Position numbers and translations under genes: made by a program | Shown: one piece after another, positions 30,371-53,721 of the stretch | How positions within the stretch are numbered: position 1 is the first letter of the stretch | How the letters are laid out: the number at the start of each line of letters is the position of its first letter | From: Labilithrix sp. | GTDB lineage: Bacteria > Myxococcota_A > Polyangia > Polyangiales > Polyangiaceae | Assembly (NCBI GenBank): GCA_044227045.1 | Contig: JBGAFW010000002.1 | Span: 195,457-259,456 of the forward strand | Length of the DNA stretch: 64,000 nucleotides | Direction of reading: 5' to 3' | The notes under the pieces: generated by a model | What the model was told of the DNA's origin: nothing | What the model saw: the letters and a program-made list of their open reading frames with translations, nothing else | Databases searched by the model: none

Positions 30371-31366
30371 ATGATCGCCGAATCGATGCTCGACCTCGTT
30401 GGACACACGCCGCTCGTGCGTGTCCGCGCGGACTGGCTCAACAACAGCGAAGGCTCGGCGAAGATCTGGGCGAAGATGGAGAACCTGAACCCCGGCGGGA
30501 GCGTCAAGGATCGCATCTGCCGCGCCATGATCGAAGACGCCGAGGCGCGCGGCCTCCTCGTCAAGCCAGGTCCCGTCGTGGAGCCTACGAGCGGCAACAC
30601 CGGCATCGGCCTCGCGCTCGTCTGCGCGGTGAAGGGCTATCGCCTCATCTTGACGATGCCCGAGAGCATGAGCCTCGAGCGCCGTCAGCTCCTCGAGGCG
30701 TACGGCGCGGAGATCGTGCTCACCCCGGCAGACGGGCAGATGGAAGGCGCGATCGAGAAGGCCCGCGAGATCGTCCAGGAGACGCCGGGCGCGTTCATGC
30801 CGCAACAGTTCGAGAGCGCCGCGAATCCCTCCGTGCATGCGCGCACCACCGCCTTCGAGATCCTCCAGGCGATGGACGGCTGCTCGATCGACGCGTTCGT
30901 CGCGGGCGTCGGGACGGGCGGCACCGTCAGCGGCGTGAGCCCGGAGCTTCGGAAGGTTCATCCGCACGTCCGCATCATCGCGGTCGAGCCCGACGCCTGC
31001 GCCACGATCTCGCGCGGGCAGCGCGGGCCGACGAAGATCCAAGGGCTCGCCGCCGGTTTCGTCCCGAAGAACTACGACGCCTCGGTCGTCAACGAGGTGC
31101 GCACCGTCACCGACGACGACGCGTGGCGCACGAAGAACCTCCTCGCCAAGCACGAGGGCTTGCTCGTCGGCATCAGCGCAGGCGCGGCGGTGAACGTCGC
31201 GCTCGACATCGCCCGCGAGCTGCGTGATCCCAAGAAGAACGTCGTCACCGTCCTCTGCGACACAGGCGAGCGCTACTTCAGCCTCGACGAGTATTTCCAG
31301 CACCTCAAGGGCAGCGATCCCGGCTCCACGAACGCCGAGCGCCTTCGCAAGGGGCCGCGTCGATGA
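30371..31366 (+). CDS. cysK: Cysteine synthase A (O-acetylserine sulfhydrylase)
   Basis: PLP-fold motifs NPGGSVKDR, TSGNTGIGLA and GVGTGGT. Confidence 0.9.
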   Translation: MIAESMLDLVGHTPLVRVRADWLNNSEGSAKIWAKMENLNPGGSVKDRICRAMIEDAEARGLLVKPGPVVEPTSGNTGIGLALVCAVKGYRLILTMPESMSLERRQLLEAYGAEIVLTPADGQMEGAIEKAREIVQETPGAFMPQQFESAANPSVHARTTAFEILQAMDGCSIDAFVAGVGTGGTVSGVSPELRKVHPHVRIIAVEPDACATISRGQRGPTKIQGLAAGFVPKNYDASVVNEVRTVTDDDAWRTKNLLAKHEGLLVGISAGAAVNVALDIARELRDPKKNVVTVLCDTGERYFSLDEYFQHLKGSDPGSTNAERLRKGPRR

Positions 31367-32127
31367 GCTCGGGCGATCGTCAGGTGCTCCAGAAGAAGCG
31401 CGTCCTCGTCGTAGGCATTGGTGGCCTCGGATGTCCTGCGGCGATCGTGCTCGCGCGCGCCGGCGTCGGCACGATCGGGATCGCCGACGATGACGACGTC
31501 GATCTCACGAACCTGCATCGCCAGGTGCTGTTCGAAGACGCTGACGTCGGCAAGCCCAAGACCGACGTCGCCGTGACGCGTCTCTCTTCATGGACGGCGG
31601 GCGTCGCCTCGCCGGCGATCGTCCCGCACCGCACACGCCTTCTCCCAACGAACGCGATCGCGCTCGTCCGCGACTACGACCTCGTCGTCGAGGGCAGCGA
31701 CAACTTCGCGACGAAATTCCTCGCCGCCGACGCCTGCGCGATCGCGAACAAGCCGATCGTTCACGCCGCGGCGGTCCGCTGGCATGGCACCGCGCTCGCG
31801 GTCGCTCCGCATGGCGCGCCTTGCTACCGCTGCGTCTTCGAAGACCTGCCGCTCGAGAACCCGCCGAACTGCGCCGAGGCGGGTGTTGTCGGCCCGATGG
31901 TGGGCGTCGTCGCGGCCGCGCAGGCCGATCTCGCGCTCTCGGCGCTCCTCGGTGATGCGAGCGTCTTCGGCGAGCTCTTCACCTTCGACGGCAAGTCGCT
32001 CACCTCGCGGCGAAGGCACGTCGCGAAGCGCTCGACCTGCGCGCTCTGCGGCGACGCAGCCAGCATGGCGCGCATCCAAGACATCAACGAGGCCCGCTAC
32101 GTCGAAGGCATCTGCGCCGCCGGCTAG
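31363..32127 (+). CDS. ThiF/MoeB/MoeZ-type E1-like adenylyltransferase. It lacks the rhodanese domain found in M. tuberculosis MoeZ.
   Basis: Rossmann GIGGLGCPAAIVLARAGVG. Two CxxC pairs (CYRC, CALC). ATGA overlap with the cysK stop. Confidence 0.85.
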   Translation: MSSGDRQVLQKKRVLVVGIGGLGCPAAIVLARAGVGTIGIADDDDVDLTNLHRQVLFEDADVGKPKTDVAVTRLSSWTAGVASPAIVPHRTRLLPTNAIALVRDYDLVVEGSDNFATKFLAADACAIANKPIVHAAAVRWHGTALAVAPHGAPCYRCVFEDLPLENPPNCAEAGVVGPMVGVVAAAQADLALSALLGDASVFGELFTFDGKSLTSRRRHVAKRSTCALCGDAASMARIQDINEARYVEGICAAG

Positions 32128-32184
32128 CCCAACCACCCAACCGATCACGCACGCATTCAGACAGAGGAAAGGAAGACACTCATC

Positions 32185-32457
32185 ATGGACACGATCGTCA
32201 GAATCCCCGCCGCGCTCCGAACGTTGACCGGCGGTGCCGACGAAGTGAAGGCCGCTGGGGGCACGGTCGGCGACGTCATCGAGGATCTCGAGAAGCGTCA
32301 CCCTGGCTTGAAGGACCGCCTCCTCGACGACAAGGGCGTTCGCCGCTTCATCAACATCTACGTCGGCGAAGAAGACGTCCGCTTCACCGGTGGCCTCAAG
32401 ACGGAGCTGAAGTCCGGCGACCAGATCAGCATCATCCCGGCGATCGCGGGCGGCTGA
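32185..32457 (+). CDS. cysO: CysO/ThiS/MoaD-family sulfur carrier protein with a C-terminal Gly-Gly
   Basis: 90 aa. Ends ...IIPAIAGG. Beta-grasp size and composition. Confidence 0.8.
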   Translation: MDTIVRIPAALRTLTGGADEVKAAGGTVGDVIEDLEKRHPGLKDRLLDDKGVRRFINIYVGEEDVRFTGGLKTELKSGDQISIIPAIAGG

Positions 32458-32482
32458 AATAGGGCTCCGCGCCTCGAACGAC

Positions 32483-32791
32483 ATGACCCCCGAACAACGC
32501 CGCCGCTACGGACGCCAAATCCGCCTCGCCGAGATCGGTGAAGCCGGCCAAGCTGCGCTCTGTTCGCTCGAGGTCTCGCTCGCTTCGCGTGGCGAGCATG
32601 CGCGTGCGATCGAGCGGCGCTACCTCGAGGCCGCCGGCGCGCGGGTCGTGGGGACGGGCGATGAGGCTCACGAGATCGTTCCCACGCTCGGCCTCCGGCA
32701 TCCCGAAGCGCGCGAGCTCGCCGAGGGCGCGATGCACGCGCTCGACGCGATTCGCGCCTCTGTGCTCTCGGCGAAGGGCAACGCGCCATGA
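32483..32791 (+). CDS. Truncated ThiF/MoeB-N-terminal-like ORF. It keeps the RYxRQI motif but lacks the GxGxxG nucleotide loop, so it is a possible pseudo-E1 or gene remnant.
   Basis: EQRRRYGRQIRLAEIGEAGQAALCSLEV aligns to the MoeB start RYNRQIILRGFDFDGQEALKDSRV. Stop overlaps the cysM start by 4 nt. Confidence 0.4.
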   Translation: MTPEQRRRYGRQIRLAEIGEAGQAALCSLEVSLASRGEHARAIERRYLEAAGARVVGTGDEAHEIVPTLGLRHPEARELAEGAMHALDAIRASVLSAKGNAP

Positions 32792-33735
32792 GCGGGTGGC
32801 TTCGTGCGCGCCGGATCGAGTCCGTCGTCGAGGCGGTGGGCGACACGCCGCTCCTTCGCCTGCGCCTTGCGATGAAGACAGCGCCGAGCGTGCCGGTGTA
32901 CGCGAAGCTCGAGTTCGAGAACCCCGGCGGCAGCGTCAAAGATCGCGCGGCGCTTCGGATGATTCAAGACGCGATGAAAGACGGGCGCTTGTCGAAGGGC
33001 AAGGTCCTCATCGACTCGACGAGCGGCAACACCGGCGTCGCATACTCGCTCTTCGGCGCCGCGCTTGGCATTCCGGTGAAGCTCGTGATGCCTTCGAACG
33101 TGTCGAAGGCGCGGAAGGACATCGCGCAGGCGTTCGGCACCGAGATCATCTGGTCCGATCCGCTCGAGGGATCCGACGGCGCGATCCGCCTCGCGAAGAA
33201 GATCACCGATGAGGAGCCGGGCCGCTTCTTCTACCCGGATCAGTACTCGAACCCGTCGAACCCCCTCGCGCACTACCACGGCACGGGTCCCGAGATCCTG
33301 CGCGACGTCGGCGATCGCATCACCCACTTCGTGGCCGGCCTCGGGACGAGCGGCACGATGATGGGCACGGCGCGCCGGCTGAAGGAGCACCATCGACCCA
33401 TCCGCTGCGTCGCCGTCGAGCCTGACGGGCCGATGCACGGCTTGGAAGGTCTCAAGCACATGGCGACGAGCCTCGTGCCGGCGATCTACAACCCGCGCAC
33501 GCACGACGAGGTCTTTCCTGTCTCCACCGAAGACGGCTGGGACATGGCCGATCGCCTCGCGCGCGAGGAGGGCCTTCATGTCGGCCACTCGTCGGGCGCG
33601 AACATCTTCTGCGCGGTGAAGATCGCCGAGCGCCTCGAAGCCGAAGGGAAGGCGGGCTGCATCGTCGCGATCGTCGCCGATCGAGGGGACCGCTACTTCT
33701 CACCCCTCCGGTGGGAGAAGAAATACGTGTGGTGA
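32788..33735 (+). CDS. cysM: CysM-type cysteine synthase (CysO-thiocarboxylate-dependent, PLP fold)
   Basis: NPGGSVKDR, STSGNTGVAYS and GLGTSGT motifs. Sits in a cysO/mec context as in M. tuberculosis. Confidence 0.85.
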   Translation: MSGWLRARRIESVVEAVGDTPLLRLRLAMKTAPSVPVYAKLEFENPGGSVKDRAALRMIQDAMKDGRLSKGKVLIDSTSGNTGVAYSLFGAALGIPVKLVMPSNVSKARKDIAQAFGTEIIWSDPLEGSDGAIRLAKKITDEEPGRFFYPDQYSNPSNPLAHYHGTGPEILRDVGDRITHFVAGLGTSGTMMGTARRLKEHHRPIRCVAVEPDGPMHGLEGLKHMATSLVPAIYNPRTHDEVFPVSTEDGWDMADRLAREEGLHVGHSSGANIFCAVKIAERLEAEGKAGCIVAIVADRGDRYFSPLRWEKKYVW

Positions 33736-41256: not shown

Positions 41257-44200
41257 CTACGGCTCGACGAGCGTGACGTTGCCCTCGACGGTCTTGCTCG
41301 CGCGCGTCGACTGGCGCCACCACGCAGCGACCTTGCTCTCGCCCGGGACGAACTGCGGGAACGCGACCCAGCGGTTGTCCTGACCCGTCACGGTGCGGAG
41401 ATCCCACTTGTGCGAGGTGGGTGAGCTGCCGGTCCCGACGGCCTTGCGGAGGCCGAGCGAGGAGGAGTCGGCGTAGTAGATCGTCACGACGTCGCCGTCG
41501 ACGCGAATGACGGAGTCGTCGCCGACGATGTGCTTGCCGTCGGGGAACGTCTTGCCGTCGACGGTCGAGCCGTCATCGACGACCTCGGACTTGCCGGGCT
41601 TGCCGTCGTTCACCGCGATGTAGCGGAGCGACTCGTCGAGGCCGTTGACGTAGCTCACGTGCCACGTGCCGGTGCTCGCGATCGCGAGCGACGCTGCGAT
41701 GCCGACGTCGCCGGTGTCGATCGCCGTCTTGTCCTCGCGCTTGCCGGTCTCGCCGTCGAGGATGACGCGCTCCCACGGGATCGCGCCTCGATCGAGGAAG
41801 CCGATCAGGTTGCCGTGGTAGCCGTCGTACGCGACGAGGCCGAGGCCCTTCGGCCCGGTGGCGATGCTGATGAACGCGCCGAGCGCGCTCGGGTAGGTCT
41901 CGATCGCGCCTTGTTTGGCGAGGCAGGTGGCCTTGTTGTCCTTCGTGACGCAGGCCTGGCTGTCGGTGCATGCGGGCGCGCAGCCGCCGATGGTCTTCGT
42001 GCAGATGCCGGTCTCCTTGATGCACGCGTCGCCGCCGGTGCAGCTGTTCGCGCGGCAGGGCCCGTCTTCGTCGACCGCGATGTCTTCGAACCCGAAGTCT
42101 TCTGCGCCTTGCGGCTTGTCGGTCTTCGCGCGTGCGAGGACGATCTTCGAGCGCGTGCGGCCGCCGTTTCCCGGCTCGATGTGCATGTACGCGATGACCG
42201 GCTTGCCATCGACGAGCACCATCTTGCCGTATTTGCCGATGTCGGCGCCGGCTTGCTCTTTGAGGACGGAGATCTTCCAGCCGTCGTCCTTCGTCTTCAC
42301 CGCGAGCTTCAGGCGGTGGTTCGTGTCGTCGTAGTAGCTCACCATCGGCAGATCGTCTTTGTCGAGCTGGATCGAGGTGTAGCGGCCGACGTTGTCACCC
42401 GAGTCGACTTCGCCCTTGCGCCAGCCATACGGCTCGTAGCCGGGGCACGTGCCGTCGGTGCGTGCCGGGATGCCGTCGACGGTCTCCCAATCGACCTCTT
42501 TCTTGCCGAGGTCGTACTTGCCGACGACGAGGTCGCCCCAGAGGAGCGAGTCGCCTTCGGAGAGCATCGAGTCGTTGTAACCGGCCGCCCAGATCGTCCC
42601 GTCCTTCGCCTTCGCGACGGAGAGGTACGCGCCGGGCTGACCATGGCCGAGGCCCGTCGAGCACGGCTGGTTGCAGTCGGAGCCGCATCCGGTCTGCGGA
42701 TCCGCTTCGCTTCCGCAGGCGCAGCCTTGGCTCGTCGCGGCGACGGCGCTGATCGCGCCGATGGCGAGGCCAGCGCGCGTGGCGATGCCGCGCCATGACG
42801 ACGGCGTGGAGGAGGCGATGACGTCGCCGCTGCGACGCGAGCGACGTGCGAGCACGATCGCGAGCGCGCCGAGGCCGACGAGGACCGCGACGAGGCCGCC
42901 GTTGTCGCTCGTGCCCGGCGTCGAGCAGCCGCAGCCGGAGCCCGCCGCCGCGATCGTCGGATCCGCCGCGCCGCGAAGCGCCTGGCGAACCGTGCCGATG
43001 TTTCCTTCTTCGTCTTTGACCTCGACGTTCACCGAGGCCGCGTTCGGGGCCTCGATGCGCGCGAGCTCGCTGAGGCTCTTCCACTCGCTCCACGCCTGGT
43101 TGTCGACCTGGTAGCGCGCGGTGAGGGCCTCGGGCTTCGAGACGATGTCCCACGCCTTCAGCGTGAGCGCGCGGCTGTCGTGCGGATCCTTCTCGAGCTT
43201 CACGAACGGCGCGAGCGCGTCGATGACGTACTCGATGTCGGCGGGCGTGCCGTCCTCGGTGTTCGGCTGACCCACGACGCGCGCGGCGGTGTGGAGCGTG
43301 TGCTTGCCTTGGACGAAGAGCTGATCGTCCTTGATGACGATGTGCTTCTCGGTCGACCACGGCGAGCGCGTGCCGCTGTCGATCCACCACGAGTACTCGA
43401 CGGGGTGAACGGTGTCGCCGTCGAGCGACGACGACAGCTCGACCTCGAGCTCGGGGAGCTTGTCGGCTTCGTAGGTCCACGCCTGGAGGTGATCCTTCCA
43501 GACCTTCTTGCCGAGGAGCTTCGCGCGGGTGTCGACCTCGATCGACGCGGTGCTCGCCTTCGAGAGCGTCGAGAAGATGCCGACGAAGTCATCGGTGTCC
43601 TTCGTGAGCTTCTTGATCTCGTTGACCTCGAGGCTGAGGCCGAGGCTCGCGACCGCGCCGGAGATGTCGATCGGCGAGAAGCCGCCGCCGACGAGCTGCT
43701 TCGACACGGTGCCGAAGATGCCGCTGACGGCGCCCGCGACCACGTCCGGGTTGTCCATGAGGAGGATGTCGGCGTTCGAGATCTTGCCGTTCGTGACCTT
43801 GATCTCGCCGAGCGACGGCACGAGCCCGCCGTTCGGGTTGCTTGGGCCCTTCGCTGTTTGGAGCGTGACGGGGATCGTCAGGTCGCCCGTGTACGTGAAG
43901 ACGCGCGCGAAGCGATCGAAGCTCCAGATGTAGAAGTCGATCGCGAGCTCGGGGATCGTCACCATCAAGAGCGGGTCGGTGTTCTTGTCGTTGCCAGTGC
44001 CGATCTTCACCTGCGGCGGCTTCTGCGGGCGCGTCGCGATCGCCGCGGCGGCGTCGGACTGCTCGAACGTGAGCGACTTCAACGACGGGATGAGGAGCGA
44101 GAGGAGACCGCTCTTCAACATGTCGAACTGCTCGGTCGACACGCCGAGGCACAAGAGGCCGCTGTTGTAGACGCTGGTGAACGAGTAATCGAGGAAGCGG

Positions 44201-45489
44201 CCCGAGAGCGCGATACCCACGTGGGGCGCGCCCGCGGCCTCGGCGGCCTTCGGCGCGAGCTCGTCGGGGATCGGGATGCCGGTCGGGGGCGTGACGGGCT
44301 TCTGGACGACGCACTTCGACGTCGGTTGCGGGAGGACGCCGCCGACCATGCCGAGCGTGACGCCGTTCTTCGTGCGCCCCGACGCCTCGGCGTTGAGGTT
44401 CGGGTGCGGCTGCATCGCGCCGAACGAGCCGATGCCGAAGTCGACGCCGCCCGCCGTGCTCGGCGAGAACGACTTCAAGAGGCCGCCGAGCTCGACGTGC
44501 GAGTCGGTGCCGAGGAGCATCGGGACGCACTTCGCCTTGTCGGTGTCGTAGACGCAGTGCTTGTTCTCGGCGTCGGGGCTCGTGTCCGTCGGGCACGACG
44601 GGTTCAGCGTGGGGATCGGCTTCGTGCAGAGCTGGTCTTTGAGGAGGCTCCGAACCTGATCGGTGAGGCCCTTCTTGAGCGGGTCGACGACGAGGCCCTT
44701 CACGAAGCCGGAGTTCGTGATCGCGCTGCACACGTCGGTGGCGAAGCCGCACGACGAGCAGACCTTCACGTCATCGGACGAGAGGCCGGAGAGATCGATG
44801 TCGGCGTTGTCGATGTCGATCTTCGTGTAGCCGGTGCGCGGGGCCGTGGTCTCCGCGACGAGCGGGATCGTGATCCCGATCGGGAGCGCCTTCGGCGTGA
44901 CGTTGGGCTTGCCGTCGCTGCATCCGCCGTTGCCGTAGCCGATGTGGAGCGTGATCGAGCCGATGTCGAACGTGCCGCCGACGATCGGGTCGCCTTTGAT
45001 CGTCGCCTCGATCGGGGTGTCTTCGAGCTCGAGGGGAATCGTCGCGATGACCTTGATCGCGTTCGGCTTCACCGAGTCGATCTGGAACGTCGACTTGCCG
45101 ATGCCGACGCCTGCGTGGCACTTCGGCGGGGTCGCCGCCGGGTTCGGACCGCCAGGGCACACGTTGGGGTCGAGGAGGATCTTGCCGATGCCGAGGTTCG
45201 CGATCTGCGAGCTCGGAGGATCGATCGCGGGGATGTCGAAGCCGAGCGTGCCGTTCGGCGCGTTCGTGAGCTTCGTCGCGATGGCGGGCAGCTCCTTCTC
45301 GATGAAATCGAGGCCGGGTCGCGAGACGCGAACCGACGCTGCGTTCTCGACGGCCTTGTCCGTCGGGAAGCCACCCGGCAGCGGGGTCATCCCCGCGCAG
45401 CCACCGCAACCACCGCATCCGCCGCCGCTACACGAAGCGATCAGCAGAAAGAAGACGACGCCAAAGACATGGCGGAAACGTGAAAGCAT
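41257..45489 (-). CDS. Giant secreted lipoprotein ORF. As sequenced it fuses (A) an N-terminal ~880-aa lipoprotein ending in a MYXO-CTERM-like sorting motif to (B) a ~520-aa beta-propeller-type lipoprotein with its own signal peptide. Probably two genes (A about 42834-45489, B about 41257-42822).
   Basis: N-terminal lipobox FLLIASCSGG. Internal GSGCGCSTPGTSDNGGLVAVLVGLGALAIVLARRSRRS (MYXO-CTERM tripartite pattern) at about 42834-42944. It is immediately followed by RGIATRAGLAIGAISAVAATSQGCACG (lipoprotein signal). No in-frame stop lies between the two. Confidence 0.6.
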   Translation of the reverse strand: MLSRFRHVFGVVFFLLIASCSGGGCGGCGGCAGMTPLPGGFPTDKAVENAASVRVSRPGLDFIEKELPAIATKLTNAPNGTLGFDIPAIDPPSSQIANLGIGKILLDPNVCPGGPNPAATPPKCHAGVGIGKSTFQIDSVKPNAIKVIATIPLELEDTPIEATIKGDPIVGGTFDIGSITLHIGYGNGGCSDGKPNVTPKALPIGITIPLVAETTAPRTGYTKIDIDNADIDLSGLSSDDVKVCSSCGFATDVCSAITNSGFVKGLVVDPLKKGLTDQVRSLLKDQLCTKPIPTLNPSCPTDTSPDAENKHCVYDTDKAKCVPMLLGTDSHVELGGLLKSFSPSTAGGVDFGIGSFGAMQPHPNLNAEASGRTKNGVTLGMVGGVLPQPTSKCVVQKPVTPPTGIPIPDELAPKAAEAAGAPHVGIALSGRFLDYSFTSVYNSGLLCLGVSTEQFDMLKSGLLSLLIPSLKSLTFEQSDAAAAIATRPQKPPQVKIGTGNDKNTDPLLMVTIPELAIDFYIWSFDRFARVFTYTGDLTIPVTLQTAKGPSNPNGGLVPSLGEIKVTNGKISNADILLMDNPDVVAGAVSGIFGTVSKQLVGGGFSPIDISGAVASLGLSLEVNEIKKLTKDTDDFVGIFSTLSKASTASIEVDTRAKLLGKKVWKDHLQAWTYEADKLPELEVELSSSLDGDTVHPVEYSWWIDSGTRSPWSTEKHIVIKDDQLFVQGKHTLHTAARVVGQPNTEDGTPADIEYVIDALAPFVKLEKDPHDSRALTLKAWDIVSKPEALTARYQVDNQAWSEWKSLSELARIEAPNAASVNVEVKDEEGNIGTVRQALRGAADPTIAAAGSGCGCSTPGTSDNGGLVAVLVGLGALAIVLARRSRRSGDVIASSTPSSWRGIATRAGLAIGAISAVAATSQGCACGSEADPQTGCGSDCNQPCSTGLGHGQPGAYLSVAKAKDGTIWAAGYNDSMLSEGDSLLWGDLVVGKYDLGKKEVDWETVDGIPARTDGTCPGYEPYGWRKGEVDSGDNVGRYTSIQLDKDDLPMVSYYDDTNHRLKLAVKTKDDGWKISVLKEQAGADIGKYGKMVLVDGKPVIAYMHIEPGNGGRTRSKIVLARAKTDKPQGAEDFGFEDIAVDEDGPCRANSCTGGDACIKETGICTKTIGGCAPACTDSQACVTKDNKATCLAKQGAIETYPSALGAFISIATGPKGLGLVAYDGYHGNLIGFLDRGAIPWERVILDGETGKREDKTAIDTGDVGIAASLAIASTGTWHVSYVNGLDESLRYIAVNDGKPGKSEVVDDGSTVDGKTFPDGKHIVGDDSVIRVDGDVVTIYYADSSSLGLRKAVGTGSSPTSHKWDLRTVTGQDNRWVAFPQFVPGESKVAAWWRQSTRASKTVEGNVTLVEP

Positions 45490-45775
45490 GAACTTCCTCC
45501 TCCTCGTGACCGCGCCAGCTCTCAAGCAAAGTCTAGCGGTCGCCTCGCGAGAGCCCGGCAAGGTCTCGATCAAAGCGCCTCGCGACCTATCCACATCGTG
45601 ACAGATGCGCGAGCAATCACCACTCCCAACACGACCCGAACGAGGGGCCGAAAATCATGACGATTTCGGCGTCCTCAACCCAAAAGAGGCCTTACCACGG
45701 GAGGCGTGGCCGATTTCCGGAAATCGTGCGCTGTGGCTCCTCATGAGACGGAGCCTTGATGCACAGCGTCAACGG

Positions 45776-46927
45776 TCAGTCCGCGTCCGAGGCATCTGCT
45801 GCGTCGCTCGCGTCCGTCGTGGTCGCGTCGGCGTCCGCGCCTCCATCCAAACCGCCCGTTGACAGACCCGAACAGCCGTCCACGCTGCCTTTGCCGTCGA
45901 AGATCTTGGCGGCGCTCGCGGCGAACGTCGCGGCGAGCCACACGCTGTCCTGGCAGGAGCCGGGCGCTTTGTCGGTCGAGCAGTAGTCGCCTTTGAAGGT
46001 GATCTTGCCAGCGCCGTCGCGCGGACAGACGAGCCCGGCTTCTGACGCCAAGAAGGCACACAGCGACTTGTTGTTGAGGTCCCGGATCTTGACCGCGTCG
46101 GCTTGCTCGAGCGTGATGAAGCCGCCGAGCGAGCCCGCGGTGTTCCACTTCGGGCACAGCTCGCGGTCTTCGGTGCACGACGTGTCGAGCGCGGCGGCGT
46201 TGAACGCGCCGATGCAGTTGCCGTCGGGGGACAGCGAGACATTCTCGATGCGCGCGTCGCTGATCGGCAAAATGATCGCGCTCTCGAGCTTCTCGGAGAG
46301 GAAGATCGGGATGTTCACGCTCGCGCGCTCGAGCGTCTTGAACGTGTTGCCCTTGATCTCGATCTTGACGTTGAGCGGCTCGACCTTCGTGTTGTTGAGC
46401 GTGAAGCTCGCGAAGCAGAAGCCCTTGCCGGTCGGATCGGTCGAGGGAGGCGCGCCGCCCGTGAGGAGCGTGTTGTTCTTCTTGTCGACCCGAAGGATCC
46501 ACGTGAAGAGGCCGGTGCCGTTCTCGGCGCACGTGGGCTCGGCGAGGTCGATGCCTCGGTTGACCACGTTGTTTTGGATGAACGACCCTGCGAGCGGCGC
46601 CGGCGCGGCGATGTTCAGCCGGCGCATCCGAAGGTCGAGGATGTCTTTGCCCTTGTTGTCGCCGATCGGAAGGCAGGTGGCGGTCGGTCCGCAGCGCGCC
46701 GTGTCGATCACGCATCCGCTCCCCGAGCACGACTTCTGCGAGTTGTCGCAGTCGGGAGGCGGAAGGTCACCAGGCTTCGCCTCGCACGCGCCGCCGCCGC
46801 CGCTCGCCGCCTGCTCGGGCGACGTGCGAAGGTGGTCATCGTCGCAGGCGAGCGCGATGAGCGTGGCCGCGGCGCCGAGCGCGCCGAGCGCGAGGATCGA
46901 GACGAGTCGGTTCGAAGGGGCGCGCAT
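45776..46927 (-). CDS. Secreted Cys-rich lipoprotein (hypothetical)
   Basis: Lipobox LIALACDDD. Asp/Ala-rich C-terminal tail. Confidence 0.6.
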   Translation of the reverse strand: MRAPSNRLVSILALGALGAAATLIALACDDDHLRTSPEQAASGGGGACEAKPGDLPPPDCDNSQKSCSGSGCVIDTARCGPTATCLPIGDNKGKDILDLRMRRLNIAAPAPLAGSFIQNNVVNRGIDLAEPTCAENGTGLFTWILRVDKKNNTLLTGGAPPSTDPTGKGFCFASFTLNNTKVEPLNVKIEIKGNTFKTLERASVNIPIFLSEKLESAIILPISDARIENVSLSPDGNCIGAFNAAALDTSCTEDRELCPKWNTAGSLGGFITLEQADAVKIRDLNNKSLCAFLASEAGLVCPRDGAGKITFKGDYCSTDKAPGSCQDSVWLAATFAASAAKIFDGKGSVDGCSGLSTGGLDGGADADATTTDASDAADASDAD

Positions 46928-46941
46928 TGGGCTGGAGAACG

Positions 46942-47877
46942 CTACTCGATCACCGAGATGGGACCACCCGTCTCGACCAGCGTCGTGAACTGCTCCATGC
47001 GCTTGTTCAAGTCGGCCGGGCCGACGTCGAGCAGGCGCTTCGGGCCGATGCCTTCGACGCAGAACGAGCCGAGCGCGGAGCCGAAGTAGATCGCCCGGCG
47101 GACCGTCTGCGGATCGACTGCGCCAGCGCGCGCGATGTAGCCGATGAGGCCGCCTGCGAACGAGTCTCCTGCGCCGGTCGGATCCACGACGTCTTCGAGC
47201 GGGTAGGCGGGCGCGAAGAACACGCCGGCGTCGTCGAAGTAGAGGGCGCCGTGCTCGCCGCGCTTGATGATGAGGCGCGACGGTCCGCGCTTGCGGATGT
47301 CGGCCGCGGCCTTCACGAGGTTGTGGATGCCGGTGAGATCGCGCGCCTCCTCGTCGTTGATGACGAGCATGTCGATCTTCGCGAGCACCTCACCGAGGAG
47401 CTTCGGCTCTCCGGTGATCCAGAAGTTCATCGTGTCCGCGATGACGAGCTTCGGCTTGTCGACCTGCGCGAGCACCTCGAGCTGGAGCGCCGGGTGGATG
47501 TTGCCGAGCAGGACGTACGGAGACGATCGGAACTGCGGCGGGATCTTCGGGCGAAAATCCGCGAAGACGTTCAGCTGGGTGTCGAGCGTGGTGCGGCTTG
47601 CGAGGTCGTGCGAGTAGCGCCCGCGCCAGCGGAACGTCTTGCCGTTCGCGTGCTCGACGCCGGCGGTGTCGACGCCGCGCTTCTTCAGGTCTTCGAGGAC
47701 GGCCGCGGGGAAATCGTTTCCGACGACGCCGACGAGGCGGACCGAGGTGAGCATCGACGCCGTGATGGACGAGTACGTCGCGGCGCCACCGAGCACGTCG
47801 TTGAACGTGCCGGACGGCATCTCGAGATCGTCGAACGCAAGCGAGCCAACGATGAGGGCGGGTGCTTTTTGAACCAT
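46942..47877 (-). CDS. PfkB-family carbohydrate/nucleoside kinase (ribokinase superfamily)
   Basis: DPTGAGDSFAGG ATP-binding signature. N-terminal GG substrate motif. Confidence 0.85.
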   Translation of the reverse strand: MVQKAPALIVGSLAFDDLEMPSGTFNDVLGGAATYSSITASMLTSVRLVGVVGNDFPAAVLEDLKKRGVDTAGVEHANGKTFRWRGRYSHDLASRTTLDTQLNVFADFRPKIPPQFRSSPYVLLGNIHPALQLEVLAQVDKPKLVIADTMNFWITGEPKLLGEVLAKIDMLVINDEEARDLTGIHNLVKAAADIRKRGPSRLIIKRGEHGALYFDDAGVFFAPAYPLEDVVDPTGAGDSFAGGLIGYIARAGAVDPQTVRRAIYFGSALGSFCVEGIGPKRLLDVGPADLNKRMEQFTTLVETGGPISVIE

Positions 47878-47901: not shown

Positions 47902-48771
47902 CTAGCCCAAAGCATCACCAAGGAGCCAGCCAAGCCTCGCGCGAGCCGGCTCGGTGATGGCGCTCGGCGCGGTCATGATGGCGCCCTTGGTCGCGCGGTA
48001 CGCGATGCTCTTGGCCGGATCGGGCAGGTGCGAGGAGAGGTCGGCGAGCGCCTTCTTCGCATTTCCGACGTTCTTCTTCATCGTGGCGACGACCGCCTCG
48101 ACCGTCACGTCGTCGTGCGCGTCGTGCCAGCAGTCGTAGTCGGTGGCGAGCGCCAACGTGGCGAACGGCAGCTCGGCCTCGCGCGCCAGCTTCGCCTCGG
48201 GCATCGACGTCATCCCGATCACCGAGACGCCCCACGTGCGGTAAAGCCGGCTCTCCGCGCGGGTCGAGAATTGCGGCCCCTCCATGCAGACGTAGGTTCC
48301 GCCCTGGTGCGTCGTCGCGCCCGTCGACTGCGCGGCGGCGCCGAGCGCGTCGGCGAGCAACGCGCAGGTGGGGTCGGCGAACGGGACGTGGCCGACGATC
48401 CCATCTTCGAAGAACGTCGTGATGCGCTTCTTCGTGAGGTCGATGAACTGGTCGGGGACGACGAGGTGTCCGGGCTCGATCTCCTCTTTCATCGACCCGA
48501 CGGCGCTCACCGACACGACGTGCGTGGCGCCGGCCTTCTTCAGCGCGCAGACGTTCGCGCGGTAGTTGATGGCGTGTGGCGGGAAGCGATGGCCGCGACC
48601 ATGGCGCGGCAAGAAGAGCATCGTCGTCCCGTTCGCGAGCGTCCCTTTGACGAGGACGTCGCTCGGGCGCCCGAACGGCGTGTCGATGTCGAGCTCCGTG
48701 ACGTCACGAAGACCGTCCATTTCGTACAGACCACTGCCGCCGAGGACACCGAGTGTGTAGCCGCTGCTCAT
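47902..48771 (-). CDS. mtnP: S-methyl-5'-thioadenosine phosphorylase
   Basis: GVLGGSGLY and PFGRPSD motifs. MTAP-typical length. Confidence 0.85.
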   Translation of the reverse strand: MSSGYTLGVLGGSGLYEMDGLRDVTELDIDTPFGRPSDVLVKGTLANGTTMLFLPRHGRGHRFPPHAINYRANVCALKKAGATHVVSVSAVGSMKEEIEPGHLVVPDQFIDLTKKRITTFFEDGIVGHVPFADPTCALLADALGAAAQSTGATTHQGGTYVCMEGPQFSTRAESRLYRTWGVSVIGMTSMPEAKLAREAELPFATLALATDYDCWHDAHDDVTVEAVVATMKKNVGNAKKALADLSSHLPDPAKSIAYRATKGAIMTAPSAITEPARARLGWLLGDALG

Positions 48772-51151: not shown

Positions 51152-52639
51152 CTAGCGCCGTCCGATGTTGCTCAGATCGTCAGGCTGCTTTTCGGCAGGC
51201 TTGTCCGGCTGCTTGCCGTTCTTCGGAGCGGCAGGCTTCGTGGCGGGTGTTGGTGGCTTACGCATGTCGGGCAGCGCGCTCGCGGCAGGCGGCTCCGGCG
51301 CGGCGGGCGGACTCGCGCTCGTCGAGGCCGAGGGAAGGGGAGGGAGATCCTTACGGCCGGGCGGGAGCGGGACGCTCTCGCTCTTCTCCGTGCCTTGCGC
51401 TTGGGTGCTCGTCGCGGCGTTCGCGCGCTTGACGTACCAAACCGCGCCGCCGGTCGCTGTCCCCGCGACGAGCAGACCCACGACCGCGATCGCCGCGATC
51501 AAGCCGCCGCTGCTGCTGCTGCTTCGCGCGACGCCGACCTTCTGCTGCTCGTGAAGGAACGGCATCGGGCCGACCTGCGACTGCGTCTCGCCCCACGCGA
51601 CCGAGGTCCCGCCGTGCACGTTCACACGTGACGACGTGGCCGGAGGAATGGGGTTCGAGGCCGTGGGCGCGGACGGCGCGGGGTTCGAAGGAGCCGCGCT
51701 CGGCGAGCGACCTCCGCCTGCGACGGCGCGCACGCGATCGGTCGCGGTGGCCTGGACGTAGCTCGTGAACGGCTCGAGCGCTTGCACGAGCTCGACGACC
51801 GTCTGGAAGCGATCTTCGGGGCGCTTCGCGAGGCAGCGACGCACGATGAGCTCGAGCCCTTCAGGCACGTCGGGGCGGAACTGGCGGACGGGCGGATCGG
51901 GCTCGGTGACGACGACGAGAACGAGCTCGGTCACCGTCTCGGCGTAGAAGGGCACGCGGCCGGTGAGCAATTCGAACAAGATGACGCCGAGCGCCCAGAT
52001 GTCCGTTCGCGTGTCGACGTTCCGCGCGCTCCGGAGCTGCTCGGGCGACATGTAGCTCGGCGATCCGATGACCTCGGTCGTCCTCGTGAGCTGCATGTCC
52101 TCTTGGCCACGCGCGAGCTGCGGGTCGACCTTCGAGATGCCGAAGTCGAGCACCTTCACGACCGGCTTGCCGTGGACGGCGTGCGTGAGAAACAGGTTCT
52201 TCGGCTTGAGATCGCGGTGGATGATGCCGGCCGCGTGCGCTTCGGCGATCGCCTCGCATGCTTGGAGCACGTAATCGACGGCGACGTTGACCGGGAGCTG
52301 CTGCTGCTTGTCGACGATCTCGCCGAGGTCGTGGCCCTCGAGCCGCTCCATCACGATGAACGGGCGGCCGTCTTCGAGGTTGCCGACATCGAGGACGCGC
52401 GCGACGTGCTCGCTGCGAAGGCTCACCGCGGCGCGCGCTTCACGAAGGAAGCGACCGAGGACGTCCGTGTGCTCGAGCGCGCTCTCGCGCAGGAGCTTGA
52501 TCGCGACCTTCTGGCGAAGCGCTTCGTGCTCGGCGGCGAGCACCACGCCCATTCCGCCTTCGCCAATCAAACGCTCGACGCGGTACTTGCCCGCGAGAAG
52601 CTCGCCTCCGGAGAAGCTGCGTTGGGTTGTTCCGTTCAT
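51152..52639 (-). CDS. Hanks-type Ser/Thr protein kinase with a TM helix and a Pro-rich extracytoplasmic tail
   Basis: GEGGMGVV glycine loop, VAIK, HRDLKPKN, DFG and SPEQ motifs. TM helix LIAAIAVVGLLVAG. Confidence 0.9.
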   Translation of the reverse strand: MNGTTQRSFSGGELLAGKYRVERLIGEGGMGVVLAAEHEALRQKVAIKLLRESALEHTDVLGRFLREARAAVSLRSEHVARVLDVGNLEDGRPFIVMERLEGHDLGEIVDKQQQLPVNVAVDYVLQACEAIAEAHAAGIIHRDLKPKNLFLTHAVHGKPVVKVLDFGISKVDPQLARGQEDMQLTRTTEVIGSPSYMSPEQLRSARNVDTRTDIWALGVILFELLTGRVPFYAETVTELVLVVVTEPDPPVRQFRPDVPEGLELIVRRCLAKRPEDRFQTVVELVQALEPFTSYVQATATDRVRAVAGGGRSPSAAPSNPAPSAPTASNPIPPATSSRVNVHGGTSVAWGETQSQVGPMPFLHEQQKVGVARSSSSSGGLIAAIAVVGLLVAGTATGGAVWYVKRANAATSTQAQGTEKSESVPLPPGRKDLPPLPSASTSASPPAAPEPPAASALPDMRKPPTPATKPAAPKNGKQPDKPAEKQPDDLSNIGRR

Positions 52640-52785
52640 TTGAAGAGGGCGGCGACAGAACAGGGGGTAGGCGCGAAACCCCCTGTGCTTGCAGAACGCT
52701 CGATGAGAATAACGACGTCCGGGACCACCGTCGACCCCAAGATCTCGCTAAAGTTTCGGCTAGTCTGCGGTCGACACGAGAAATC

Positions 52786-53721
52786 ATGCGCCCTGAGCTC
52801 TTCCGCCTCTTCGACGTAGGGTTCCCCTCCTACTTCGTGCTTCTGCTGTCCGGCTTTGTCTTCGCGACGGGGCTCGGCGTGCTCTGGGTGCGCCGAATCG
52901 GCTTGAATCCCGATGTGATCGTCGACCTCGGCCTCGCGATGCTCCTCTCGGGGGTCGCGGGCTCACGCATCCTTCACGTGCTCGCGGACGGTCACTTCAT
53001 GGAGTACGTCCACTTGTGTACCGATCCGTCGCAGGTCGACTGGCCGTTCGACCGGGCGGAATGTGTGTCTGCTGCCTACGATGGGGTGTGGGACGCCGCG
53101 AAGGGCGTCTGCCATCCGAAGAGCAGCGACTGCTTTGCGTGGGCGAAGTTCTGGGCGGGCGGCCTCACCTATTACGGAGGGTTCCTCGGCGCGACCGTGG
53201 CCGCGGTCTTCCTCCTGCGTCGCGATCGGTTTCCGTTCTGGAAGGCCGCCGACATGGCGGGCTTCGCGATCCCGATGGGGCTCGCGTTTGGTCGCATGGG
53301 TTGTCTCCTCGCGGGCTGCTGCTTCGGCGCTGTCACGAAGCTCCCGTGGGGGATGTCATTCCCGCCACGAAGCCCCGCGAGCGAAGCGCAGGCGAAAGAG
53401 CATTTGTTGCAGAGTGCACGCATGTGGAGCGAGCCCGTCCATCCGACGCAGGTCTACGAGTCGGCCGCCTCGCTGCTCGTCGCGTTCGTGTGCCTCTACG
53501 TCGTCATGCCGCGGAAGCGATACGACGGTCAGGTCTTCGCCGCGTCGCTCGTCCTCTATGCGACCGCGCGCTGCCTCGTCGAGATCCTGCGGCGCGATGA
53601 TCGCGGCGGCATGATCGGCCTCTCTACGTCGCAGCTCATCGGCCTCGGGCTCATCGCTGCGGCGTTCGTGATCCATCGCACGCTCGGGAAGAAGAAGACC
53701 GCCGCGCTGGCGCCGGCGTAG
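52786..53721 (+). CDS. lgt: Prolipoprotein diacylglyceryl transferase
   Basis: YGGFLGATVAAVFLLRRDRF...IPMGLAFGRMG aligns to E. coli Lgt HGGLIGVIVV...RR...IPFGLGAGRLG. HPTQVYES aligns to HPSQLYEL. Variant signature GRMGCLLAGCCFG. Cys-containing insertion at about residues 75-135. Confidence 0.75.
   Translation: MRPELFRLFDVGFPSYFVLLLSGFVFATGLGVLWVRRIGLNPDVIVDLGLAMLLSGVAGSRILHVLADGHFMEYVHLCTDPSQVDWPFDRAECVSAAYDGVWDAAKGVCHPKSSDCFAWAKFWAGGLTYYGGFLGATVAAVFLLRRDRFPFWKAADMAGFAIPMGLAFGRMGCLLAGCCFGAVTKLPWGMSFPPRSPASEAQAKEHLLQSARMWSEPVHPTQVYESAASLLVAFVCLYVVMPRKRYDGQVFAASLVLYATARCLVEILRRDDRGGMIGLSTSQLIGLGLIAAAFVIHRTLGKKKTAALAPA

Follow-up and report, generated by a model that had tools for sequence, protein, structure and literature searches.

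The midcut-by-XrtH family (NF033207) is, by its name, defined by a mid-protein sorting signal that is cut by an exosortase. In the Myxococcota, proteins with the MYXO-CTERM sorting signal occur in all of the examined genera, and their cleavage by the myxosortase MrtX is Cys-dependent, according to the relevant sections of a 2025 mBio paper from the Wall and Haft laboratories (PMC11980579). The same sections state that some substrate escapes MrtX processing, that C-terminal sorting tags still work, in the authors' judgement, when placed mid-protein, and that the lipidation of MYXO-CTERM signals by Lgt is an open question (PMC11980579). They also describe MXAN_5598 of Myxococcus xanthus, with a rare internal MYXO-CTERM for which processing is proposed, and the TraA/TraB pair, in which the gene for the MYXO-CTERM protein overlaps the following partner gene (PMC11980579). 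A further relevant system is TipA of the predator Bdellovibrio, a BPI-like double-TULIP protein whose gene shares an operon with those of its partners and which is served by the adapter TipB (bioRxiv 10.1101/2025.09.09.675085).

We analysed a gene on the minus strand of a 64-kb stretch of DNA (the window) from a Labilithrix-like soil myxobacterium. The closest relatives are found in Labilithrix, Polyangiaceae, Polyangium and Sorangium genomes. Because all of the orthologues begin at MLSRFRH, we place the start at the ATG at 45489; the ORF at 41257..45594 (minus strand, 1445 aa from the GTG at 45594) is merely the mechanical maximum. The initial annotation gave coordinates that match the ATG start, but its residue numbers follow the 1445-aa ORF and not the 1410-aa protein. 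The features are as follows.

41257..45489, minus strand: whole putative precursor gene, 1410 aa and the stop codon, start ATG at 45489
45430..45489, minus strand: N-terminal lipoprotein signal peptide, M1-C20, MLSRFRHVFGVVFFLLIAS followed by Cys, with the canonical lipobox I-A-S-C
45391..45432, minus strand: Cys/Gly-rich membrane-proximal linker CSGGGCGGCGGCAG, aa 20-33, with Cys kept in 79-95% of the orthologues
43546..45390, minus strand: predicted BPI/CETP-like double-TULIP region, about aa 34-648
42976..43542, minus strand: two beta-sandwich (Fn3/Ig-like) domains, about aa 650-838
42832..42942, minus strand: internal MYXO-CTERM, aa 850-886, with GSGCGCSTPG, hydrophobic span and Arg cluster
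42847-42900, minus strand: hydrophobic span of the internal MYXO-CTERM, aa 864-881
42775..42846, minus strand: Arg cluster and predicted cytoplasmic loop RRSRRSGDVIASSTPSSWRGIATR, aa 882-905
42721..42774, minus strand: internal lipoprotein-type signal, h-region and lipobox, aa 906-923, AGLAIGAISAVAATSQG followed by Cys
42661..42723, minus strand: Cys-rich stalk behind the lipobox, CACGSEADPQTGCGSDCNQPC, aa 923-943, with all Cys invariant or nearly so and low pLDDT
41260..42657, minus strand: seven-bladed beta-propeller, about aa 945-1410
41905-42069, minus strand: 8-Cys insert within the beta-propeller, aa 1141-1195
45776..46927, minus strand: partner lipoprotein gene, 383 aa, signal ending in LIALA before the Cys, directly 5′ of the precursor gene

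The model of the first half has the two-barrel TULIP fold of a BPI/CETP-like double TULIP. This resemblance is structural only, as no family, the LBP_BPI_CETP models included, reaches its threshold in a Pfam search. The half behind the junction is confidently modelled as a beta-propeller, as the initial annotation had suspected, while the hairpin region between the two halves has low confidence in the AlphaFold2 model (pLDDT 33-58). The 383-aa partner lipoprotein has no Pfam match. Its homologues (29-77% identity, from Labilithrix to Polyangium/Sorangium) lie directly upstream in most of the loci with enough flank, and are absent beside the stand-alone N-only paralogues.

Is the junction between the two halves real? 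Given that some homologues are split genes whose stop and start codons overlap, one wrong base might in principle suffice to produce such a fusion, and the join could be an indel error or a recent stop loss in this genome only. However, an independent Logan assembly yields the same ORF and an identical protein, with 1 mismatch in 8826 bp. Moreover, the junction is uninterrupted in 66 of the 80 loci from GTDB species-representative genomes (Labilithrix, Polyangium, Sorangium), including the Labilithrix luteola DSM 27648 chromosome, Polyangium jinanense and Sorangium sp. So ce1078; these fused loci share 35-75% identity, include closed chromosomes, and maintain the reading frame through many differences in loop length. 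An artefact or recent lesion is accordingly so improbable that it can be set aside. Among the matches listed, 112 of 120 homologues are longer than 1300 aa, with 46-76% identity and, in most cases, coverage of 97-100% of the query. The layout Cys-span-RR-loop-span-Cys was found by an automatic parse in 170 of 190 full-length proteins, and most of the others look alike by eye. Judged from these comparisons, the join is genuine, under selection and kept in dozens of species, and the fused state is old and dominant rather than a recent stop loss.

These results bear on the three explanations that were first offered for the two internal sorting signals in one uninterrupted ORF, an observation that both the homologues and the independent assembly uphold. 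The sequencing or assembly indel is contradicted by the data above. The fusion of two genes is supported as evolutionary history, with overlapping two-gene homologues in existence, but not as a recent loss of a stop. The natural fusion that is cleaved into two proteins is the best supported of the three, with cleavage as its presumed step. The initial annotation had also named two observations that, taken together, would argue against a fused gene or an error: orthologues sharing the uninterrupted ORF and a MYXO-CTERM score below threshold. The orthologues do share the ORF, but the score lies above the threshold.

The first motif, GSGCGCSTPG...LARRSRRS (42942-42829), occupies aa 850-887 of the 1410-aa protein, equivalent to aa 885-922 of the 1445-aa ORF. 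TIGR03901 (NCBIfam; curated cut-off 20 bits) matches aa 850-886 of the whole protein with 25.3 bits (E 1.4e-5) and the isolated 53-aa junction fragment with 33.6 bits (E 3.8e-8), and 55 of 65 orthologous junction fragments match at E below 0.01. The tripartite layout is complete—GCGC at aa 852-855, the span at aa 864-881 and RRSRR at aa 882-886—and the motif noted initially is confirmed. Cys853 and Cys855 are 100% conserved in the alignment of 112 orthologues. In a six-frame scan of the 64-kb window, the Cys/hydrophobic span/Arg-cluster pattern occurs only at the junction and in one spurious match inside the Lgt gene; no CPBP-family gene was seen in the scanned parts of the window. The same protein also carries an N-terminal signal peptide, of the lipoprotein type (MLSRFRHVFGVVFFLLIAS before the Cys), with the PROSITE PS51257-type core pattern matched at Cys20, which is kept in 95% of the 112 orthologues. 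The MYXO-CTERM is internal here, with 524 residues following the Arg cluster, unlike that of the split and N-only homologues, where it is C-terminal.

The second motif, RGIATRAG...SQGCACG (42792-42712), follows in the same frame with no stop codon in between, exactly as initially read. ISAVAATSQGC fits the PS51257-type core pattern, ending at Cys923, and upstream of it lie R900, R905 and the RRSRRS cluster. The signal had been called textbook, which is not quite accurate: its lipobox is S-Q-G-C instead of L-A-G-C, atypical at positions -3 and -2, and the Cys is residue 923 of the precursor, far from the N-terminal zone of about 40 residues that is usual for lipoprotein signals. Our literature search turned up no report of an internal signal or lipobox being processed by Lgt or signal peptidase II. 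Cys923 and Cys925 are 99% and 100% conserved in the orthologue alignment, and a small residue precedes the lipobox Cys throughout the family. Distant fused homologues have canonical L-x-G-C lipoboxes at the second signal, and in distant members the lipoprotein signal comes straight after the Arg cluster, as in RRRR-VALALAVAGC, RRRR-SLVLLGLLGC and RRR-AALLAVALVALASAC. In stand-alone C-half genes, the homologous segment is the N-terminal signal peptide, e.g., MNARATFLGLGVLALIGAMNPGC.

The two spans might instead both stay permanently in the inner membrane as an uncleaved hairpin anchor, with two periplasmic domains on one polypeptide and the motifs as relics or otherwise kept, e.g., for disulfides. 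The uninterrupted ORF in 66 of the 80 loci and the Arg-inside topology suit such a hairpin, the second span has 17-20 uncharged residues in most members, enough to cross the membrane, and the division into two products is a step that we infer. In contrast, a plain anchor needs neither invariant Cys residues on both sides, nor a TIGR03901-scoring motif (55 of 65) and a small -1 residue across the family. In about 12% of cases the second span contains no more than 14 uncharged residues, and in some members it measures only 7-14; lengths of this order are usual for a signal that is cleaved off and insufficient to hold a protein stably in the membrane. Furthermore, a two-gene form recurs among the orthologues, and since its two proteins cannot be linked covalently, such a link is apparently not needed. 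We therefore consider the uncleaved hairpin unlikely.

In other lineages, the halves are indeed separate adjacent genes, N then C. The split N gene ends in a terminal MYXO-CTERM, with 7 of 10 terminal tails scoring at or above the TIGR03901 cut-off, and the split C gene begins with Met and a lipoprotein signal. The stop and start codons overlap as ATGA, GTGA or TGATG, and the C frame is always the N frame + 2. The split pairs share the neighbourhood of the fused genes, PNP-PfkB-partner lipoprotein-N-C, and two of them were found again in independent assemblies. In a neighbour-joining tree of the N half, split forms appear at no fewer than four places among the fused ones; as this tree is crude and carries no support values, neither the direction nor the number of fusions and fissions is certain. 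For a change from one state to the other, a 1-nt indel in the unconstrained tail would be enough. The loop between the Arg cluster and the second span varies from 3 to 39 aa across the family in the automatic parse.

An in-frame ATG-A just before the second span persists in some fused genes, and the propeller half might be translated mainly from an internal start codon, the fused frame being incidental. An in-frame ATG, GTG or TTG is present in the loop of 36 of the 55 parsed fused loci, and in the closest relatives Met-Thr still stands immediately ahead of the second span. However, 19 of the 55 have none, and neither does the window gene between RRSRRS and Cys923, where Ala (GCC) replaces the Met. 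Since there is no stop codon, ribosomes that translate the first half must continue into the second regardless. Independent translation is thus a very improbable source of the propeller half.

What, then, is the function of the two signals? We conclude that this natural, long-conserved fused gene probably encodes a two-in-one envelope precursor that is cleaved into two lipoproteins, because the join is genuine, has been retained in dozens of species and corresponds to two overlapping genes elsewhere. The topology, lipidation, cleavages and final location in the following scheme are what we infer from the data: the two motifs and how well they are conserved, the modelled folds, and the occurrence of fused as well as split homologues. 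First, the N-terminal lipoprotein signal would carry the BPI/CETP-like half across the inner membrane. Second, the hydrophobic span of the MYXO-CTERM would halt the transfer, leaving the Arg cluster and the loop in the cytoplasm. Third, export of the beta-propeller half would resume at the next hydrophobic segment, which would function as an internal signal peptide of type II (lipoprotein); the Arg cluster and loop would then have two roles, giving the MYXO-CTERM its basic tail and the second signal its n-region. Fourth, lipids would be attached to the lipobox Cys923 and to either Cys853 or Cys855 of the MYXO-CTERM. Finally, MrtX would cleave after Cys853/855 and signal peptidase II before Cys923. 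The predicted products are two separate lipid-anchored proteins, one a BPI/CETP-like double TULIP and the other a seven-bladed beta-propeller; the hairpin between them, a peptide of about 65-70 aa comprising span 1, loop and span 2, would be discarded. The two proteins would be the same mature products that the split-gene relatives make from two translationally coupled genes.

Alternatively, only one signal may be used. If signal peptidase II alone acts, the propeller is released and the first half keeps its hydrophobic span as an anchor; if the myxosortase alone acts, the first half is released and the propeller remains attached to the hairpin. The atypical lipobox in the window and the fraction of substrate that escapes MrtX (PMC11980579, in the sections cited above) are compatible with a single cleavage. 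Nevertheless, we regard it as improbable, since both motifs are equally strongly conserved, and both are working terminal signals in the split homologues.

Returning to the doubly cleaved precursor, we propose its complete form more tentatively: three lipidation sites on the outer side of the inner membrane (Cys20, Cys853/855 and Cys923), two different intramembrane proteases (myxosortase and signal peptidase II), back-to-back signals sharing one Arg cluster, and a released hairpin. Since the precursor starts with a signal of the lipoprotein type, its first product would have a lipid anchor at each terminus, one at Cys20 and one at Cys853/855. Such double lipidation is unusual, which speaks against the model, and disulfides could instead join the invariant Cys pairs flanking the hairpin. 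If the model is correct, a BPI/CETP-like lipid-transfer protein anchored at both ends could tether or bridge membranes, and could act together with both the propeller lipoprotein and the lipoprotein of the conserved upstream gene. The Cys region of the MYXO-CTERM also fits the lipobox core pattern, and the family would therefore be a natural substrate for testing the lipidation of MYXO-CTERM by Lgt.

How does this locus compare with the known systems? The mid-protein tag recalls the concept of midcut-by-XrtH, which belongs to another sorting system (PEP-CTERM and exosortase); the window protein has no match to that model, and one orthologue only reaches 13.5 bits against a cut-off of 45, so membership is rejected. 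TipA shares the overall fold class of the first half, on which the likeness rests, whereas lipid anchors and sorting tags are not described for TipA (bioRxiv 10.1101/2025.09.09.675085). TraA-type MYXO-CTERM proteins, sorted by MrtX and the type II secretion system, have the same tripartite motif, a TIGR03901 score above the cut-off, an N-terminal signal peptide and Myxococcota hosts; the tag is C-terminal there, while here 524 residues lie beyond it and the N-terminal signal is of the lipoprotein type. The overlapping TraA/TraB gene layout is that of the split homologues (ATGA, GTGA, TGATG), although the proteins are unrelated and the window pair is one ORF. The coupling of two sorting systems was initially thought to be new, but an internal MYXO-CTERM with proposed processing has already been published for MXAN_5598; the sections describing it read the protein as a two-gene fusion and suggest that its N-terminal portion undergoes processing and becomes anchored at the surface, which resembles the present case (PMC11980579). 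MXAN_5598 combines an adhesin with an outer-membrane beta-barrel and an OmpA domain, whereas a BPI-like region is joined to a beta-propeller here. In those sections, MXAN_5598 is presented as a rare oddity of one genome, with no mention of a second signal peptide or lipobox behind the tag, of family-wide conservation or of fused/split polymorphism (PMC11980579), whereas the fusion described here is kept across 66 of 80 loci.

The longest minus-strand open reading frame (ORF) at this site, 41257..45594, has a GTG start and encodes 1445 aa. In all orthologues the N-terminus is MLSRFRH, which corresponds to the ATG at 45489, and the gene is therefore placed at 41257-45489 on the minus strand, with a 1410-aa product. 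The initial annotation had given the same gene coordinates, which agree with the orthologue-supported ATG, but its residue numbers were those of the longer 1445-aa ORF. The GC3 value across the ORF is 0.92, which is usual for genuine genes of the source genome, and the long opposite-strand ORFs overlapping the gene are an ordinary by-product of the high G+C content. The junction between the N half (BPI/CETP-like double-TULIP part) and the C half (beta-propeller part) is composed of the following elements, in the 1410-aa numbering.

G850-S-G-C-G-C-S-T-P-G, minus strand: Cys motif of the MYXO-CTERM
aa 864-881, minus strand: first hydrophobic span
R882-R-S-R-R-S, minus strand: Arg cluster
From behind the Arg cluster as far as R905, minus strand: loop
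AGLAIGAISAVAATSQG, minus strand: second hydrophobic segment
C923-A-C-G, then CGSDCNQPC, minus strand: Cys of the second lipobox and the residues that follow
41905-42069 (aa 1141-1195), minus strand: insert interrupting the beta-propeller, with eight invariant Cys residues

No in-frame stop codon lies between the MYXO-CTERM and the C923 motif. The structural model of the hairpin region is of low confidence. The 8-Cys insert is probably a disulfide-knotted loop.

Is the join genuine? The locus also occurs in a Logan assembly (L001) made independently from a sequencing run; over 8826 bases it has a single mismatch to the window and codes for the identical protein. In a collection of 5.8 billion proteins, we found 383 homologues at E up to 1e-5. 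Among the 120 homologues listed, which include AKJ09_09059 from the closed genome of Labilithrix luteola, 112 are longer than 1300 aa, with 46-76% identity and mostly 97-100% query coverage. The alignment of these 112 members retains the Cys motif, both hydrophobic segments, the RRR cluster and ...VAATSQGCxCGSE, while the loop is very variable in length and sequence and always keeps the reading frame. Cys853, Cys855 and Cys925 are conserved in 100% of the orthologues, and Cys923 in 99%. The sequencing or assembly indel that had been put forward as one option is thus excluded by the identical L001 protein and the conserved, uninterrupted homologues. An artefact is accordingly very improbable, and the join is almost certainly a natural, conserved fusion.

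The distant fused members clarify the nature of the second signal, as they carry a canonical lipoprotein signal directly behind the MYXO-CTERM Arg cluster (RRRR-VALALAVAGC, RRRR-SLVLLGLLGC, RRRR-VLALLASLGLLGC and RRR-AALLAVALVALASAC). A single basic cluster therefore serves both signals. When 190 full-length proteins were parsed for the order Cys, span, RR, loop, span and Cys, a strict parser missed 39 and a looser one caught 170; by eye, most of the 39 show the junction architecture. In the family, the last charged residue lies 7-25 residues before the second-signal Cys (median 18), and about 12% of the second segments (14 residues or fewer) are too short for a stable membrane span.

The two halves also occur as separate genes. 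An exhaustive phmmer search with aa 264-1410 retrieved 6328 cluster representatives at an E cut-off of 0.001 and still 527 at 1e-30. Many of them are full-length proteins, with identity as low as 29%. Two classes of shorter proteins stand out. In proteins of about 820-900 aa, the match ends precisely at the Arg cluster, and the protein ends in a genuine terminal MYXO-CTERM, such as ...GGCGCSTPGHRPDAPWAAFGALGLGLAALVRRSRRGDRGGAA. In proteins of about 490-525 aa, the match begins precisely at the second hydrophobic segment, and the protein opens with Met and a lipoprotein signal, such as MNARATFLGLGVLALIGAMNPGC or MFSRSRQLLDARSLAIAAIAAVASASQGC. Contig look-ups revealed that the split genes adjoin each other in a window-like neighbourhood—PNP_UDP_1, PfkB, partner lipoprotein, N gene, C gene—with a 4-nt overlap of the N stop and the C start, and this arrangement recurs in three and in two independent assemblies. 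Neighbours of the fused gene in the window are listed below.

45776-46927, minus strand: Cys-rich 383-aa partner lipoprotein gene, directly upstream of the fused gene
46942-47877, minus strand: PfkB-family kinase gene, preceding the module
47902-48771, minus strand: PNP_UDP_1 phosphorylase gene, preceding the module
51152-52639, minus strand: Ser/Thr kinase gene, divergent from the Lgt gene and on the same strand as the PNP, PfkB and lipoprotein genes
52627-53721, plus strand: prolipoprotein diacylglyceryl transferase (Lgt) gene (Pfam E 1.3e-45), about 7 kb from the fused gene

The partner lipoprotein, which has no Pfam match, is encoded directly upstream in most loci with enough flank. From Labilithrix to Sorangium its gene stays next to the fused genes or split pairs, and it is missing beside the stand-alone N-half paralogues; the module probably includes the partner as a third subunit. 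The PNP_UDP_1/PfkB order is strikingly kept in most of the loci examined, with no evident functional link. The Lgt/kinase arrangement is found again at locus L003, and L. luteola and several other Labilithrix-like loci likewise have Lgt a short way upstream. Most other loci lack it within their 6-kb flanks, and its proximity is not counted as evidence. Elsewhere in the window, two PALP (PLP-dependent) genes and a ThiF-family gene at 30371-33735 (plus strand) look like a sulfur-carrier-protein-dependent biosynthetic cluster syntenic with L. luteola, where PALP and ThiF families are likewise found, together with ThiS and a JAB-domain gene.

We surveyed one genome per GTDB species, and classified 80 homologous loci by tblastn and reading-frame tracing. 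The junction is uninterrupted in 66 of the 80, whose hosts include Labilithrix luteola, Polyangium jinanense, two further Polyangium species and Sorangium sp. So ce1078. True split pairs occupy five loci (L048, L049, L055, L069 and L079), and contig ends interrupt four. Four others (L035, L042, L060 and L086) hold N-only paralogues with a terminal MYXO-CTERM, outside the conserved neighbourhood, and three of these four genomes also hold a fused copy (L044, L021 and L078). In the remaining locus (L011; about 6219, JAHBWF010000066.1, Labilithrix sp. ACE_MYX10), the junction is fused and a premature in-frame stop lies near codon 70 of the N half; either this orthologue is a pseudogene or its metagenome-assembled genome contains an assembly error. 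As a separate observation, a C-half propeller lipoprotein gene directly follows the partner lipoprotein gene at L003 (6001-7536, GCA_964269065.1), with no N half at the locus, so the propeller half can occur without an adjacent BPI-like half.

All of the split pairs have an ATGA, GTGA or TGATG boundary, and the C frame is always the N frame plus 2. The switch is mechanistically simple: the gain or loss of one nucleotide in the cytoplasmic tail, which is unconstrained, joins the genes of an ATGA-overlap pair into one ORF that carries an in-frame Met, and the opposite change separates them again. The closest relatives of the window gene still have ...RRVMTRAG... with ATG-A, and Ala903 (GCC) of the window protein aligns with their Met. 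At the window junction, TCATGG contains an ATG in another frame, which was considered as a relic of such an overlap; this frame yields no signal peptide, and we treat the ATG as a chance occurrence. When N halves were compared by neighbour joining, fused genes were present throughout the tree, deep branches included, with split pairs dispersed over at least four positions. The tree is a crude one that lacks support values, and we therefore claim only that the fused state dates back at least to the divergence of the copies in Labilithrix, Polyangium and Sorangium, and that the state has changed several times. The proposal that loss of a stop had fused two adjacent genes fits the split relatives, but not as an event in one genome, because the fused form is dominant and conserved across species.

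Both signals were examined by formal methods. The MYXO-CTERM call is borne out by the NCBIfam model TIGR03901 (cut-off 20), which gives 25.3 bits on the whole window protein and 33.6 bits on the isolated 53-aa junction fragment. The terminal tags of the split and N-only homologues score 18-37 bits, with 7 of 10 reaching the cut-off, and the window fragment equals or exceeds scores of such genuinely terminal tags. Whole-protein NCBIfam scans of seven orthologues found the MYXO-CTERM in one, and five matched only once the fragment was scanned alone, because the HMMER filters lose a 34-position model inside 1400-aa proteins; 65 isolated junction fragments were therefore rescanned with TIGR03901 in place of whole orthologues, and 55 of the 65 matched. 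A six-frame scan of the window found no further MYXO-CTERM-like site, except one spurious match inside Lgt. The PROSITE PS51257-type lipobox core pattern fits Cys20 in the N-terminal signal, Cys923, and Cys855 inside the MYXO-CTERM. The second lipobox, part of a signal peptide that the initial annotation called textbook, fits this core, but its S-Q-G-C is atypical. The junction hence has the HMM match and architecture of a MYXO-CTERM but not its defining terminal position, and the second signal has the lipoprotein pattern but not the N-terminal position; in the split homologues, both are terminal.

How might such a precursor be processed? According to the published account (PMC11980579), MYXO-CTERM proteins are exported by Sec and retained in the inner membrane by the hydrophobic span of the tag, which the CPBP-family protease MrtX (myxosortase) cleaves in a Cys-dependent manner. 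Lipidation of the MYXO-CTERM Cys is thought to precede cleavage, with Lgt as the candidate enzyme, and the same source notes rare internal motifs and states that C-terminal sorting tags work in mid-protein (PMC11980579). Around Cys853/Cys855 (42930-42942, minus strand), TIAAAGSGCGC fits the PS51257-type lipobox core with inverted membrane topology, consistent with the published idea of possible Lgt lipidation of these cysteines.

We propose that the first span of the junction would act as a stop-transfer signal and the second hydrophobic segment as a re-initiating type II signal, leaving both Cys motifs on the outer side of the inner membrane. The two ends of the hairpin would then be cut by myxosortase and signal peptidase II, and two lipoproteins would be set free. 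We regard this full double-cleavage model with moderate confidence, judging from comparative sequence data. The strongest argument for it is that orthologues encode the same two domains as two genes, each with the same signal at a terminus, and that lineages have switched between the layouts. The tag and the lipoprotein signal thus both probably work from inside the polypeptide; our literature search found no published case in which Lgt or signal peptidase II processes an internal signal, and no useful literature on an internal or second lipobox or on XrtH. Because the fused form is dominant in Polyangiales and has switched several times to or from two genes, the two forms presumably yield equivalent products. 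It is unlikely that the hairpin instead stays uncleaved, with the flanking Cys pairs forming disulfides, and quite improbable that only one end is cut. Internal initiation of the propeller half has very little probability: the window gene and 19 of 55 parsed fused loci have no in-frame ATG, GTG or TTG between the Arg cluster (RRSRRS in the window) and the second Cys (Cys923), so there the propeller half is obtainable solely as part of the precursor. In addition to its MYXO-CTERM (42832-42942, minus strand), the N half has, at 45391-45489 (minus strand), a canonical N-terminal lipobox, LIAS-C, and a conserved CSGGGCGGCGGC linker. With double cleavage, the processed first product would be lipid-anchored at both ends, which would be unusual for a lipid-transfer-like protein.

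The analysis brings to light, in predatory soil myxobacteria, a large and so far uncharacterised family of envelope proteins with a BPI-like double TULIP. AKJ09_09059 of the cultured L. luteola, for instance, would be an experimentally tractable candidate substrate for asking which enzyme lipidates the MYXO-CTERM Cys and whether MrtX and signal peptidase II can act on one chain. Moreover, the family calls for caution in annotation, as terminus-only rules and whole-protein HMM scans overlook internal signals.

A mid-protein sorting tag is already a named concept in NCBIfam, midcut-by-XrtH. The window protein is not a member, with 13.5 bits against a cut-off of 45 in one orthologue. Among described cases MXAN_5598 comes closest: it is presumed to be a gene fusion and has an internal MYXO-CTERM, at which processing has been proposed (PMC11980579). 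New here are the MYXO-CTERM set back-to-back with a lipoprotein signal and sharing one Arg cluster with it, the dominance of this signal pair in a large family of Polyangiales proteins, and the occurrence of fused and split forms as a natural polymorphism.
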